DNA of 45,070 nt from a virus (taxonomy: Duplodnaviria; Heunggongvirae; Uroviricota; Caudoviricetes): IMG/VR virus record IMGVR_UViG_2585427760_000004; one strand, written 5' to 3'. A program made the position numbers. Of the stretch, positions 27,001 through 33,000 are shown piece by piece (position 1 is the stretch's first letter; each line of letters begins with the position of its first letter).

Positions 27001-30000
27001 TGCCCAGTCCGGGCAGGCTGTGCTCCATACAGGTATCATCCGTTGCCCTCATTATCGTTATTCACCACCAGTCGGGGGGGCGGTGGCACCGCAAAACGGT
27101 TAGCCGCTTTTTTCGCGGCATCACCTTTTGCCGATTTTTTCCCGGTATCCCCTTTTTTATGGTGCGTGAACTGCGCCAGACGCCAGGCCGCATCCAGTGC
27201 CAGTTTCGGATCAATGCAGAGGTTTTCCACCAGGATCCGCCCCATGGCTTTCACCGGATCGGGAAGACCATCCTCCATATATTCAATACCAGGAGACATC
27301 ACCGCGGACGGTGGCATCTCCAGATTGTTTTCGTCCGGCTGTGGTATTGCAGCCGCCTCACGGCGACGGGGTTTATCCTCCTGCTCTGATTTTTTCTGCC
27401 GGTAAACAGGAACCTCATCCACCTCCACCGTCTCGCATTGTTTACGGGCTATAAACGCAAGCACCTCAGGATCTTTTGCCAGCTGCGAGCCTTTAACCCT
27501 GGCGGTCTTCGCCGAATAACCGGCGGCAATGGCTGACGCTGTTTTGTTTTTCCCGGACATGAGCGCCAGCGCAAATTTTCGTTTTTGCGTTGTCAGCACA
27601 GCCTCCTCCCGGGTCCAGAACGCACTCAGCCGGGTATGGTTCAGCCCATTTTTCCCGGCGTCTCATGCCGCAAATGTTAACTGCTGCCTGGTTAACATTT
27701 GCTGAAAAAGCCTGTTAACATTTTTTCCGCACAACAAACTGAATAATAAAGATAAAAACCGCAAAAATGCCCGGGCAGCCAGTTAACATGTTAACTGCCC
27801 TGAAACGGGAATTTTTTCTCTGCGTGAGAGGGGGCGCGGTGTCCAAAGCGATCGTTTTTTACGCCGGATGATCCCCCCCGGGGTCGGGTTACAGTCCGAT
27901 GATGTCGTCCTCTCTGCCACTACCTCCGGACACCTCCGGCAGCGTCGGGTCCGGCATATCACTCGCCGCTTCACGAGCAGACTTTTGTCGATGGCATTCG
28001 GTACAGAGCGTCCAGAGATTCGTCTCCTCATTACCACCACCGAACTGAAGTGCAATTCGGTGATCGAGTTCACTGTCACAGAGGTCAACCACACGACCAC
28101 AGAGACGGCACTGCCCGGCGTCCCTGAGCCAGATATGACGCTTGAGGGAAACACGTGCACTGCCACTGACACGACGCTGTTCACCCTTCAGAATATTCAC
28201 CCGTCGGGTATTCAGTGTATTGATTCTGCTCTGGAGTGTACGAAGCTCAGCCATGTAAAATCCCCGTCATATGGCAATCAGTAAAGGAAATAAATATGTC
28301 ATCGAAAAACCGTACCCGCAGAACCACAACCCGCAATATCCGTTTCCCCAATCACATGATTGAACAGATCAACATCGCCCTTGAGCATAAAGGGTCCGGT
28401 AACTTTTCAGCGTGGGTTATTGAAGCCTGCAGGAGAAGGCTGGCAACAGATGCAACGCATCTGCGCCCGGCCAGCATGACAAATAACGAGAAATGAACGT
28501 TCGGTTACAGGAGCAGGTACCCACTGTCCTCCAACAATATTTCATCTTCATATCCGACGGAACAATACTTACCCTGCCGGGATGTACAGAATAACAACAG
28601 AGTGATAATTAATTTCTGATGAAATAATCAGTGTGCAGAAGGACTAAAGATAAACGTTTTCTTCACGCCTTTACACGGCCTGTCCTTCTCAAATCGCCAT
28701 TTTGCCATCGCCTTTACAACCTGCTCATCAAACAGATGGTGCGGCTCTGAACGAATAAACTCAATTCGGGTGACAGTACCATCAGCACCAATATCAAACC
28801 TCACATCAACCCGTCCCTTTATATAATTTGCCGCTGCATAGGCCGGATATTGTGGTAATGCCTTAACCAACTGTCGGGGCATATCTGTTTTATGTTGCGT
28901 ACAGCCCATAACCAGAGAAGACAACAAAATAATTAACGGAAGATTTCTTTTCATTTTCATTCCCCGCACAGATTAGAATAAGTCTTATTCTAACAATGCC
29001 GCCCTGTCGGTCATCAATCCTCTGCTTAATGGCAACGACAATTATCCGACTTAAATCACAAATCAGACACATGACATAACAGGGCTTGCGAGGTAACACA
29101 TCGTCCTGTTTCTTCCACCATCGCACCGGACTGGCGACTATGAGGGGACAACGCCGCGCTCCGTTAACGCGGTAAACCCCGGTGTGTATCGTTTTTGATT
29201 ATCCCCGCACACTCGCGCAGAGGAGTCTCCCTGTCGGGCTGCGGTCTCTGTTAATGAGGGAATACAGCGACGATACGGCGCATCAGCAAAACTTAGTTCA
29301 GGCACTGAGTGCGGATATAGTCCTGTGCCCCTTCCAGCTGCTTCTGCATTGTCATCAACCGTTCTCTGAAGATGAAATAATCCCGTTCAGCGGTGTCTGC
29401 CAGTCGGGGGCCGGTTGCATTATCCACGCCGGAGGTGCCGGTGGCTTCACGCACGGTACCGGAGCAGGTGGCGTTGATCCGCAGGCGCTTACGACCAGCG
29501 GCAACATCAGCACGCAGAGTTTCATTTTCAGCTCTCGCATCGGCTAATTCCCTCGAGTATCTGGCATCAAGTTCAGCGACATCACGCTGGCGTATCTGCA
29601 TATCAGTAATTGTCGCGTTCGCCAGTTTCAGCTCACTGACTTTTTTATCGCGCTGCGCTTTGTAGGTGATGGCGTTATCGCGGTAATGATTCAGCCCCAG
29701 ACTAAGCACACCACAGGCTACCAGCAGGACAATAATCACCACACACAGAACACGGTTCATATCACCACCAACGGATTGCCCAGACCAGAACAGCAATGGC
29801 CACAATACGAATGGCAAATGCCATTGCCCGAATAAGTTCAGCACTCATCTTTTTAAAGTTCACGATTTCAGCGCAATGACCAGTTTTGCCAGCCCATACA
29901 GCATCGGAGACACAGCAATACCAACAGCCACCCACTTAATAGCAAAAGCCAGCGCTCTGCTGATGTCATCAGTCACTGTCACCCCAGCAGCCCCGACGAA

Positions 30001-33000
30001 GACAACATCACCCAGGCGAGGGACAGAAAAAGAGCAACCAGCATTAGTGAAAATGAAATACCGACAATCACACACAGGACCTTTGCCGGCGTTATGAGTT
30101 TGTCTGACATAGCTACCCCTTAATTGCCACAATTAACTGGGATACTACCCATAAAAAAGGGATGCTCCAGACCAGCAAAAATTTCCAGTTTGGTAATTGA
30201 CTAATCATGAGTCGCAACTCCCTAATCAGTTTGCTAAAATCAATCAAGGCAGCCTCCCATAGCTTACTGCCATAAAAACAAAACCCCGCTTGCTGCCAAC
30301 AAACGGGGTTTTTACTTTTATTCACTTACATTTTGCCAGTTCGCAGGATTTCGTGTTATCCGTCCGCCTTGGCCAACGTCATTTATTAGCAAAATATTCT
30401 GCTTATCTGTCGATTCCCCAGCACGCCAGCGCGCTCTCCTGGTCACGACGGGATACCTGACCGTAACAGTTATTTGAGCGAATACGGCAGTCCCTGCCAC
30501 CGTCCTTAATCCACCAGCGAATCGCCTCACACGCTCCCCTGCGATCACCTGCATTAATTCGTTTATAAAACGTCGACGGAAAACACTTACCGGGGCCAAT
30601 GTTGTACGGACAGAATGACGCGATCCCCGCTTTCTGGGGTTCACTCAATGGCACTCTGATGTTTTTCTCCACCCATGCCAGCGCCTTATCACGCTCAATG
30701 GCGTTAACCCGGTCGCATTTTTCCTTCGACAACTTCATGCCCGGAACGACAGGTTTGCCATCCACCATGATGGCACCACGGCAGATGGTCCAGATACCTG
30801 CACCATCACGGTATGCCGTGGTGTGATTGCCTTCCTTTTCATCCAGAAACTGGTCGAGAATGTCAGGCGCAGGCGCACCAGCGGCAATCAGCGCCAGAAC
30901 GGCAGCCGACAGGCCGTATCTGATTTTTGCGTTCATGGATATTTATCAGGATTTATCGGTTTCTGAGCCCTGGATATGTTTATCAGTTCCAGCCTGTTGC
31001 CTCAGGCTGCTAACAGGTCAATACAATCATGAGGATTATTTATGGACAATAACACCATTTCTCTACAGGAGTTGCTCGACAGCATTTCCAGGCTTCGGGA
31101 AGACGTGAATACCCTTACCGTCGCCTTCTCATATCTGGCATTCTCAATTCCAAGGGAACAGATGCAATCAACGCTGGCATCAATCCAGTTTGAATCATGC
31201 AATCCCAAATGGTCTCAGGAACAACAAGACTCTTTCAGGCGGCTTGCTGTATTACTGGATGAAAAATATGCTGGTAAAATTACCATTTCGGCGGACTCTT
31301 CAGAGAACCCGTAATTATTCCCGGTAGTTTTCCTCTGTAGGTTATCAACACATCCTGCGCCTCTAAAATTACGGGGCGCTTTTCCGGCGACTGCTCATCC
31401 CCTTCACATAACCCGGCAGCAACATCCAGGAAGACCTGTCTGATGCTCCTTCTGGCTGCTGCCTCATAAAACTCCAGCGCGGCACCTTCAACACGGTCCA
31501 GCGAGATGTCCAGGTCAAAAATTTCACCGTCAAAGCGTTTTTTGTCCCGTAACGCTAAAGTTACCGTAACTTTATTCTCAAAATTGCGGATCCCTTTCAC
31601 AATCAGTTCATAGTTTTGAGTCATTGAATTACTCTCCCCGTGCAGCCTTACGACGGTCCTCTCTGATTTTGAAATACAGGTTAGTCAGATATGTCAGCAG
31701 CCCAAACAGCAGACTCCCCAGCACGCCTATTGCCGCCCACTGAGACGGGGAAACCCTGTCCAGCAACTGCAGGAACCAGTAGCCCGTTCCCACCGCTGAC
31801 GTGGTGTATGACACACCTGTTGTGATTTTTTCCATCTGGTACATACCCCGTCTCCCGTTATCCGGAAGCTGACAACAATAAAAAAAGCCACCAGTTAAGT
31901 ACTGATGGCTCTGATAACTCATGCAGGCATCTCAGACGACCCACTGACACTACCGGTGAGTTTAACGATACCTTCCATTTGACTGGCTCACTTTTTATGA
32001 TGATGCTGGTGCATTTATCTCCAGCACCAGACTTTCTATCTCAACGCCATACGCTGCATTTTTGGTAATATCCGTCAGCGTCAGCGCATTCAGCCCCAGT
32101 GTCAGACTGTCTTTTATGACCTGGAATGCCGGGCCAGCCACTCCATTCAGTTTCGGAGTAACCGTGGCACTGCCGGCGGTGAACACCAGCTCCAGCGTCT
32201 GCCAGTCGTTACTGTAATTCCCGAACTCGCCCAACTTTGTGTTTCCGGCTTTCTTGTGATGCATCAGATTCAGTTTGCCGTCTGTGGTCTGGGTGAAGAA
32301 CGACATCAGGAACGGGTTACCAGTCCCGGTCATCGCCACGACGTCAGGTAACGCTACATCGGTATACAGATAAATTCCCAGACCGAACTGGTTGTTGGTC
32401 AGTGCGCCTGACAGTCGAAACTTACAGCTCAGTCTGCCACCCCGTGTCAGCAGGGAGACTGCGTCATCCACCGGATGCATCAGGGACCAGGTTTTATTGC
32501 TCTGCTTGGTAACCTTAAACACACCATCTTCCAGCGCAACACTGCCGCCGGTGATGGTCCAGCCCTGCGCAGCAGCCTCTCCGGCTGTCGGCAGCAGGGA
32601 GACTGTACGAACGGATGTGTCACCATCAGACGGCCCCGATGGAGTGTCGCCGCCGGGCGAGGGTTTAATCTCCGGTGCGGTACCGCTGATGAAGGCGCTG
32701 GTTCGACCAACTGCGTTCAGAATAGCGGTTGCCAGGCGATCCGAAATAATGCCCCTGCGCGCCCATGAACTGAAATGTGTCGGACGATTTGACGATACCC
32801 AATTACCATTACTACGGGATTGCGCGCCGTAATAACCTGCATCAGCAATATCCGGGTCTTCTGCCGGTAAGTTGGTGGGCGTGTTGTTGCCGTTACCGTC
32901 GGTCATGAACGGCACAAAGAAAACGTTGTCGCTCTCCCTGTTTTTGTACGCGCCGTAGACGGAGTCATACTGTGTGCCGTATGTGTTTTGCCAGTAATAC

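Follow-up and report, generated by a model that had tools for sequence, protein, structure and literature searches.

Four small reading frames for predicted single-pass membrane peptides between the SAR endolysin and Rz genes of an Escherichia coli prophage

Phage Mu reportedly needs an extra membrane protein, gp25 ("releasin"), for its signal-arrest-release (SAR) endolysin. Another kind of additional phage gene, the canonical moron, has its own upstream promoter and its own downstream terminator and is expressed in the lysogen. The moron concept is said to go back to Juhala et al. in 2000, with HK97 gp15 and lambda bor and lom as examples. Here we describe an array of four small open reading frames (ORFs), ORF-a to ORF-d, located between the SAR endolysin gene and the Rz spanin gene on the minus strand of a 45,070-nucleotide (nt) stretch of phage DNA (IMG/VR record IMGVR_UViG_2585427760_000004). 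The whole stretch is referred to as the window, and all coordinates are window positions. Its minus strand carries a phage-21-type lysis cassette of an E. coli prophage.

The insert in the endolysin-to-Rz gap is accessory, portable late-operon cargo, made up of four genes that encode small single-pass inner-membrane proteins and belong to three mobile families; it is not fixed lysis machinery. We hold this structural and evolutionary part of the explanation with high confidence. To the explanation as a whole, in which moron-like cargo serves a late membrane function, we give a probability of roughly one half.

Four chained reading frames and their coding status

The first-pass annotation had placed four minus-strand ORFs between the SAR endolysin and Rz/Rz1, and they are found there, in the following order with the genes that flank them.

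30403-30936, minus strand: SAR-type phage lysozyme, endolysin R (Pfam PF00959, E = 1.3e-23; "lysozyme" or rrrQ in the PGAP annotation of identical genomes)
30113-30247, minus strand: ORF-a, family A, 44 amino acids (aa) from TTG 30247 (MIDFSKLIRELRLMISQLPNWKFLLVWSIPFLWVVSQLIVAIKG)
29979-30110, minus strand: ORF-b, family B, 43 aa from ATG 30110
29860-29982, minus strand: ORF-c, family C/D, 40 aa, with a GTG start overlapping the ORF-b stop (GTGA)
29762-29848, minus strand: ORF-d, family C/D paralogue, 28 aa from ATG 29848, with its stop 1 nt before the Rz ATG
29293-29760, minus strand: Rz i-spanin (PF03245, E = 3.6e-49), ATG at 29760
29355-29540, minus strand: Rz1 o-spanin, embedded in Rz (PF06085, E = 1.7e-21)

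The endolysin-to-Rz gap measures 645 nt and consists of about 90 nt of untranslated sequence, a terminator-type hairpin, and then the four consecutive ORFs. Such an insertion had been contrasted with lambda and phage 21, in which the spanin genes come directly after the endolysin gene, and the comparison with the K-12 prophage Qin bears this out: Qin has the same endolysin type with a different spanin, and there the endolysin overlaps the spanin gene directly, with zero gap. The junctions are as tight as first described, the ORFs being chained by close or overlapping stop and start codons. ORF-a passes to ORF-b at TAG-ct-ATG, the ORF-b stop overlaps the GTG of ORF-c in GGGGTGA, an 11-nt spacer separates ORF-c from ORF-d, and ORF-d leads into Rz at TGA-t-ATG. 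The Shine-Dalgarno (SD) sequence of ORF-b, AAGGGG, is located within the last codons of ORF-a. No recognizable SD precedes ORF-d, and the hexamer GGTGAT, formed by the last sense codon of ORF-d, its stop and the next T, is likely the SD for Rz.

The start of ORF-a had to be moved. It had been read as a 31-aa frame from ATG 30208, which is too far downstream; the protein is most likely 44 aa long and starts 13 codons upstream, at TTG 30247, behind an SD (GGGAGG) at 30253-30258. We prefer this start because phrog_6632, a profile of 45 positions, aligns to residues 28 to 69 of the 70-aa PGAP call of ORF-a; because the family A homologues of 44 to 45 aa, found in Enterobacter, Citrobacter, Klebsiella, Providencia, and Salmonella, all start at the position that corresponds exactly to TTG 30247, each from a GTG, TTG or ATG codon behind an SD of its own; and because the N-terminus that begins there, DFSKLIRELR, is nearly invariant and is the best-conserved part of the protein. 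ORF-a also stands out in its G+C content, which is 38.5% against 53% for the window, 49 to 50% for ORFs b to d, and 53 to 55% for the flanking genes. At three of the related loci (L254, L293, and L298 in our numbering) there are two family-A-like matches about 265 nt apart. All three loci also yielded a diverged N-terminus (IDLPEKLIKELRE...IRWR), which points to A paralogues in tandem that lack the TAAAAT antisense motif described below.

The other three ORFs likewise belong to protein families. ORF-b matches phrog_4906 (E = 4.5e-21), and the 103 homologue clusters of family B are nearly all 43 aa long, at 65 to 98% identity. ORF-c matches phrog_1115, phrog_3246, and phrog_4493 with E values down to 8e-25 and has 121 homologues in E. 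coli, E. marmotae, and Salmonella, typically of 60 aa, while ORF-d matches phrog_4493 (E = 3.8e-6) and has a 50-aa full-length form that stands alone in other prophages. The core that ORF-c and ORF-d had been seen to share is that of paralogues, given the common match to phrog_4493 and the alignment of both to one family. Full-length C/D members have 50 to 60 aa and a basic N-terminal start, M-x-KYKRxxLRL..., and the two ORFs in the window are without these basic N-terminal ~22 residues; judged from the alignment, they are N-terminally shortened forms of one 50- to 60-aa family. A short form of 38 aa with an ORF-d-like N-terminus (MNAELLRAAAFAIKW...), ATGA-coupled to the upstream ORF, is present on 56 contigs (P0113), and short C/D forms are, on this evidence, not necessarily dead.

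Each of the four peptides has one 19-residue stretch with a mean Kyte-Doolittle hydropathy of 1.9 to 2.9, which agrees with the earlier reading of one hydrophobic helix per ORF. In all four the N-terminal flank is the more positive one, and an N-in/C-out topology is therefore predicted, with almost zero periplasmic tail; the C-terminal flanks are KG, SLAWVMLSSSGLLG, ALKS, and AIRWW. Against the usual description of a holin, a transmembrane domain (TMD) followed by a highly charged hydrophilic C-terminal domain, the four peptides have the TMD and lack the charged domain. None matches a holin family: there were zero Pfam matches at E ≤ 1, zero NCBIfam matches, and PHROG matches only to families of unknown function. 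The spanin features looked for, a periplasmic coiled-coil domain and a lipobox, are absent from the four peptides, and the true Rz/Rz1 lies downstream. The PADLOC models gave zero matches for A, B, C-long, and D-long at E ≤ 1, a result compatible with an undescribed exclusion function. The peptides do have the size and character of type I toxins (hydrophobic, <60 aa), at 28 to 44 aa and with the hydropathy given above.

The array had been put down as not described, which holds for function, the PHROG families having none assigned, and does not hold for annotation: beside those families, PGAP annotates all four ORFs as hypothetical proteins in 100%-identical E. coli chromosomes (WP_001043230, WP_001280935, WP_042004856, and WP_032140280), with longer starts for ORF-a and ORF-c than those first proposed. 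Our literature search, which included a survey of Shiga toxin (Stx) phage lysis cassettes (PMC8136144), turned up no publication, name or function for these ORFs, and work on prophage small RNAs (sRNAs) adjoining the holin-lysozyme operon does not mention them.

For the analysis of selection, about 200 related loci were gathered from IMG/VR, anchored on Rz and on the hairpin; an Rz-anchored scan of genome contigs gave one locus only. The ratio of nonsynonymous to synonymous polymorphism (pN/pS) was calculated on intact alleles, with the following values.

Family B: pN/pS 0.36; variable sites at codon positions 1/2/3, 11/6/18
Family C: pN/pS 0.12; variable sites at codon positions 1/2/3, 3/2/12
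Family D: pN/pS 0.30; variable sites at codon positions 1/2/3, 6/2/11

In the alternative frames of B, C, and D the ratio was 0.7 to 8. Pooled over the three families, the variable sites fall 20/10/41 on the three codon positions (chi-square p ~2e-5), and the C core, with 14 distinct nucleotide alleles, has just six protein versions. Conservation of the frames in related prophages, a check proposed with the first-pass annotation, was thus found, together with third-position bias and purifying selection. The full 721-nt query is covered at ≥80% in 585 of 5,426 complete E. coli genomes, and parts of it occur in 2,079 (more than one third), with about 8,200 matching places in all. Because homologues keep their frames with third-position bias and the full array recurs in this number of genomes, the array is more than chance, and by these sequence comparisons the four ORFs are almost certainly genes. 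A remnant of an insertion sequence or repeat was also considered and is ruled out by the conserved, selected frames and by the fact that all matching loci are phage or prophage.

The selection data bear directly on one alternative, that the chain of short ORFs is a coupling device that mainly brings ribosomes to the Rz start and so sets Rz/Rz1 dosage, with ORF-c and ORF-d as recombination leftovers. The tight stop/start junctions do run along the whole chain into Rz, the last ORF before Rz often ends ...RWW-TGA-n-ATG and so supplies GGTGAT as the Rz SD, and both leftovers would be truncated frames, one of them with no SD. A mere coupling device does not account for the conservation of amino acids, with pN/pS of 0.12 to 0.36 and third-position bias. 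It also does not account for sequences kept where there is no Rz or no coupling (ahead of a 22-nt spacer before an Enterobacter spanin, in tail operons, and in terminator-flanked copies), or for the recurrence of short forms with their own start codon (P0113). We regard this alternative as very improbable.

Gap contents and late-operon contexts

There were 54 distinct hairpin-to-Rz segments, and all 54 carry at least one ORF with a helix of transmembrane grade. The gap architectures found are as follows.

a' alone, ~211 nt
d-long alone
c-long + d
c-long + b'
a-b-c-d, the type of the window and the commonest in the sample
Ant antirepressor + b', in Stx-converting phages and the ECs_1964-1966 region of the Sakai prophage Sp10; this type starts with a different hairpin and lies outside the hairpin-pattern scan
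c + b + 311-aa DNA methyltransferase

The shared core of ORF-c and ORF-d had been taken for a local duplication. The varied architectures of sister prophages, with c-long + d, d-long alone, c-long + b', and a' alone, instead indicate that c and d were joined by recombination between cassettes and not duplicated in place. Recombination has made the array a mosaic, drawn from three mobile families (A; B; C/D). That the gap accepts large cargo too follows from two loci (L109 and L119) in which the 311-aa DNA methyltransferase-like ORF lies between family B and Rz; its ending, ...MVVI, replaces the usual ...RWW before the Rz ATG.

So far, family B is known to us only from lysis cassettes, where it mostly sits immediately ahead of a spanin or lipoprotein gene. 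In Sakai prophage Sp10 and the sampled Stx-converting phages that gene is Rz, which comes directly after family B. Behind an M15 peptidase endolysin (L215) there is an A-B pair whose junction, AAGGGG-stop-ATG, is again the one found in the window. In the Sakai genome (NC_002695.2, 1946124-1946270; L333) the family B gene is ECs_1966, annotated with 48 aa; it overlaps the stop of the Ant antirepressor gene and, in this Stx-type cassette, ends 7 nt before Rz.

The same families were also found in quite different surroundings. In the Enterobacter cloacae complex, family A follows a GH19 endolysin and precedes an unrelated spanin pair (phrog_1026/1275), with holins PF16931 and PF05449 encoded further upstream; the holins in the families' cassettes elsewhere include PF16080, PF16931, and PF05449. 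In Salmonella, C-long is found between a different lysozyme and Rz. A cassette with a GH108 endolysin (L336 to L338, 1200-1965) has the order hairpin, 65-aa ORF with a transmembrane helix, C-short, B, 60-aa lipoprotein (lipobox LVGC, phrog_7528), and then the terminase small subunit. This GH108 cassette has no recognizable spanin, and its gene content suggests that it may be an undescribed arrangement for outer-membrane disruption. Outside lysis cassettes, Citrobacter has family A between tail genes, just upstream of gpJ, and Klebsiella has it within a myovirus baseplate operon, the baseplate context making up 19 of 115 distinct neighborhoods. In Salmonella, a C/D member is found behind a tail-fibre assembly gene, with terminators on both flanks; only two copies, L213 and L208, both in tail operons, have a terminator downstream. 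The families are thus not specific to the pinholin/SAR-endolysin system, being found also with GH19, M15, GH108, and another lysozyme-type endolysin. Since they occur in lysis, tail, and baseplate contexts, the common denominator is the late operon and not the lysis apparatus.

These contexts are what chiefly speaks to a second alternative, in which the peptides are dedicated lysis components, the first of the roles suggested with the first-pass annotation. As antiholins or timing factors they would bind the S21-type pinholin, control retention or release of the SAR endolysin, or act on the Rz TMD as regulators. This alternative would explain why the cassette itself contains the ORFs, in its own orientation and linked by their junctions to the start of Rz, why none of the hairpin-to-Rz gaps examined is without such an ORF, and why family B is so far confined to lysis cassettes; the Mu releasin mentioned at the outset would be a precedent. 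However, the families accompany five unrelated endolysin types, different holins, and different spanins, and a specific protein partner is therefore unlikely. A and C/D moreover occur in tail and baseplate operons, the peptides have neither a holin family match nor a charged C-terminal tail, and they show presence/absence polymorphism and frequent decay. Dedicated lysis components are on balance unlikely.

Terminator hairpin, leader, and neighboring features

Upstream of ORF-a, three elements are relevant to expression of the array.

30280-30312, minus strand: intrinsic-terminator-type hairpin flanked by an upstream A-run and a downstream T-run (30270-30320), from the terminator scan
30248-30279, minus strand: ORF-a leader, with a second small stem (GGCAG/CUGCC) and the SD GGGAGG in its loop
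30232-30240, plus strand: candidate extended -10 element, TGcTAAAAT, read from sequence only, inside codons 3 to 6 of ORF-a and pointing at the hairpin

The insert does open with a terminator hairpin, as the first-pass annotation had it. On the sense (lysis) strand it folds at -22.6 kcal/mol (z = -5.1), compared with -14.2 kcal/mol on the opposite strand. Its structure is kept in 27 distinct versions in other phages, where the sense strand is the more stable one in 23 of 27 (means of -15.8 versus -13.2 kcal/mol), and RNAalifold gave 13 pairs, 8 of them with compensatory changes. G-U wobble pairs of the hairpin become C-A mismatches on the antisense strand. The greater stability on the sense strand and these mismatches indicate that the hairpin is selected on the late transcript. 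A GC-rich hairpin with A-run and T-run lies 30 to 45 nt upstream of the family A start in every context, and 32 nt separate the two in the window. In most versions the second stem of the leader pairs a UUUCU tract with the SD; the window differs in that its SD lies in the loop.

Promoters were not detected. A scan gave one promoter-like match, on the other strand, versus 2.1 expected, which is not above chance, and the 27 aligned leaders have no conserved -35/-10. This bears on a third alternative, that the ORFs are classical morons expressed from the prophage, acting for example in superinfection exclusion at the inner membrane like HK97 gp15. Such morons would be expected in some sister phages only and at several late-operon sites, including tail-gene junctions, as is the case here; the atypical G+C content of ORF-a, the downstream terminators of the L213 and L208 copies, and the other cargo of the gap (Ant, methyltransferase) also fit. 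Yet the 30 to 45 nt between hairpin and start codon hold no sigma-70 promoter that we could find, the upstream element is a terminator and not a promoter, the SD is paired with a U-rich tract in the leader of most versions, and there is no PADLOC match. We consider prophage-expressed morons somewhat less likely still than dedicated lysis components.

The plus-strand -10 candidate leads to a fourth alternative, a type I toxin-like module in which ORF-a is a membrane toxin silenced by a cis-antisense RNA of about 72 nt (about 30247-30318). Transcribed from the extended -10, this RNA would overlap the start codon and SD and be terminated by the bidirectional hairpin, a geometry like that of SymE/SymR. 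The hairpin with A-run before and T-run after accompanies family A in every context. The codons TTT AGC AAA have zero synonymous changes in 39 distinct family A genes while neighboring codons vary, although the sequence sample is shallow and the absent changes may equally reflect recent common ancestry. The predicted antisense RNA would present CCUCCC in a loop (fold z = -2.8), and by eye the C/D family also has a TATACT on the antisense strand, at its KYK codons. The candidate antisense promoter is nevertheless weakened by the hairpin, whose stability favors the sense strand in 23 of 27 versions and which C-A mismatches disrupt on the other, by a poor -35, and by the Rfam scan of 28500-32000, which gave zero matches at E ≤ 1; the promoter scan did not call the site. 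A type I toxin gene would have a promoter of its own and a long structured 5' untranslated region; no promoter-like site was found on the minus strand ahead of ORF-a, where the hairpin is only 32 nt from the start codon. We also mapped three sRNAs from the Hfq cross-linking and analysis of cDNA (CRAC) peaks of enterohemorrhagic E. coli (EHEC) Sakai (Tree et al. 2014, Table S2). None of them, EcOnc11, EcOnc52 or EcOnc33, lies within an R-to-Rz gap, a negative that is not decisive, as Sakai genome versions may not share one set of coordinates and Hfq binding is not required of a cis-antisense RNA. EcOnc11 is just downstream of Rz on the opposite strand in the Sakai Stx-type cassette, EcOnc52 at the end of a 616-aa hypothetical ORF (ECs_1088) of Sp4, and EcOnc33 inside an esterase gene of Sp6. 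The earlier suggestion of type I toxin-like peptides accordingly fares poorly, with no toxin promoter, no recognized antitoxin RNA, and a hairpin selected on the sense strand, and we judge it improbable, more so than the moron alternative.

The rest of the cassette contains the following features.

31629-31844, minus strand: class II holin (PF04971 match)
31280-31624, minus strand: DUF1327/YdfR-like gene, between holin and endolysin
30313-30402, minus strand: endolysin 3' untranslated stretch, common to all R-to-Rz gap variants

A DUF1327/YdfR-family gene (ydfR) is placed between holin and endolysin in K-12 Qin too. Between the YdfR-like gene and the endolysin, a plus-strand ORF of 90 aa (31042-31314) overlaps the 3' end of the YdfR-like gene; it has a full-length match to phrog_2411 (E = 1e-58) and is a hypothetical protein in PGAP. 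A conserved antisense gene within a lysis cassette is odd. Downstream of Rz/Rz1, a 113-aa lipoprotein-like ORF with a TonB C-terminal domain (28628-28969, minus strand; PF03544, E = 1e-14) occupies the position where lambda has bor. Upstream, a 150-nt gap (31845-31994, minus strand) separates the holin from a 618-aa esterase-like ORF (31995-33851). The prophage sRNAs PasA and PasC sit between a sialate esterase gene and the holin-lysozyme operon (preprint of Zhu, Shabalina and Storz), and the 150-nt gap is in the equivalent position; there is no Rfam match in it.

The endolysin 3' stretch is itself of some interest. Its identity to the corresponding stretch of Salmonella phages SPN3UB and FSL SP-016 is 76%. 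Two strongly divergent alleles of its first ~60 nt exist, and 22 of the 31 variable gap positions are concentrated within it, at gap positions 19 to 77. The stretch could be an RNA element derived from the 3' untranslated region. In the Salmonella prophage locus L205 it contains a GGCGGAT...ATCCGCC stem. The same locus has, upstream of the hairpin and C-long, a 32-codon hydrophobic ORF (2714-2812; MAAMICFVAAFMLACDGRSGWGWFLLVGLIVM) that overlaps the last codons of the endolysin in another frame.

Possible role and comparison with described systems

In the explanation that we favor, cargo with a late membrane function, the four genes would be transcribed only when terminator-resistant, Q-modified late RNA polymerase reads through the hairpin. 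The ORFs would then be translated as a chain, ORF-a from its own SD, ORF-b from the SD inside ORF-a, ORF-c via the GTGA stop/start overlap, and ORF-d by re-initiation, ending one base before the Rz start. The cargo would thus be silent without read-through and only modestly translated even then, a sensible arrangement for membrane-active peptides. The peptides themselves would be non-essential and interchangeable late-phase inner-membrane peptides that tune envelope events at the end of infection. The likeliest target of such tuning is the timing or robustness of holin triggering and lysis, reached through a generic inner-membrane effect; no specific partnership with the pinholin, the SAR endolysin or Rz is supposed. 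Taken alone, the assignment of late-phase lysis modulation as the function is tentative, at clearly less than even odds.

Several observations weigh against this explanation. The loci were sampled through lysis-gene anchors, and the counts of contexts are biased accordingly. The presence of family A in baseplate and tail operons means that any link to lysis would be one of timing and not of mechanism, and pure read-through does not readily explain how a baseplate operon could contain a strong terminator, unless antitermination operates in those phages as well. About one locus in ten has a frameshift, deletion or premature stop in one ORF: B is decayed in L054, L065, L066, and L203, C is decayed in L107, L119, and L155, and the L026 group has a stop in the N-terminal part of A'. 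Because of these copies selection is not absolute, and a decay rate of this size is as expected for non-essential prophage cargo. Within the a-b-c-d type there are 4 nonsynonymous and 3 synonymous changes, too few to test selection. Finally, with no SD for ORF-d and no conserved basic N-terminus in ORF-c or ORF-d, these two could be weakly expressed or non-functional in the window.

A bolder version of the explanation can be formulated, and we think it unlikely, on a level with the dedicated lysis components. Here the sense-strand terminator hairpin and structured leader would constitute a portable platform carrying at least four single-helix families (A, B, C/D, and the 65-aa ORF of L336) into late operons of many temperate phages of enterobacteria, and the peptides would be an unrecognized class of late-phase inner-membrane effectors. 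Such a class would be an optional fourth component of Gram-negative lysis cassettes that sets timing, an inner-membrane partner of the phrog_7528 lipoprotein in cassettes with no recognizable spanin, or an antisense-controlled toxin.

The genes are real, widespread, and uncharacterized, and they constitute a variant kind of accessory cargo in late operons. More than one third of complete E. coli genomes have the array or parts of it in their prophages, with no function, name or publication found. If they modulate lysis timing, phage burst would be affected and, in Stx phages, toxin release too; if they are exclusion factors or toxins, they would add to the catalogue of small membrane proteins in phage-host conflict. 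The conserved entry by terminator plus leader suggests how toxic small genes may ride safely in late operons. Culturable phages with the array or parts of it, namely PhiR5_1, the PhiR12 series (on E. coli C or K-12), and vB_EcoS-569R3, make the system experimentally tractable.

Among described systems, the holins and antiholins (S21 pinholin PF04971, lambda S105/S107, and T4 RI) resemble the array products in being small proteins of the inner membrane that the lysis cassette encodes and that are produced late, a timing that for the array is presumed. Unlike them, the array peptides have no family match, charged cytoplasmic C-terminal domain or visible dual-start motif, are only 28 to 44 aa long with essentially zero extramembrane domain, and belong to families found also outside lysis cassettes. 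The peptides of type I toxin-antitoxin systems (Hok/Sok, Ldr/Rdl, Ibs/Sib, TisB/IstR, and SymE/SymR) share with the array a hydrophobic product of <60 aa and a structured leader around the SD, and the antisense -10 motif and the two-way hairpin are candidate elements of such a system. The array differs from them in having no toxin promoter or recognized antitoxin RNA, in chaining four ORFs in a late operon, and in a hairpin selected on the sense strand. Mu gp25 and P1 LydB, LydC, and LydD are additional small membrane proteins in SAR-endolysin cassettes, a likeness by description only; the array families, unlike these proteins, also accompany GH19, M15, and GH108 endolysins. The lambdoid morons are similar in being extra genes between conserved late genes that are present in some sister phages, exchanged as modules, sometimes atypical in base composition, and in some cases small membrane proteins. 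The array departs from them in that it has no detectable promoter, has a conserved upstream terminator and structured leader, and runs straight into Rz. It behaves as moron cargo, yet it is without two defining features of a moron, its own promoter and its own downstream terminator.

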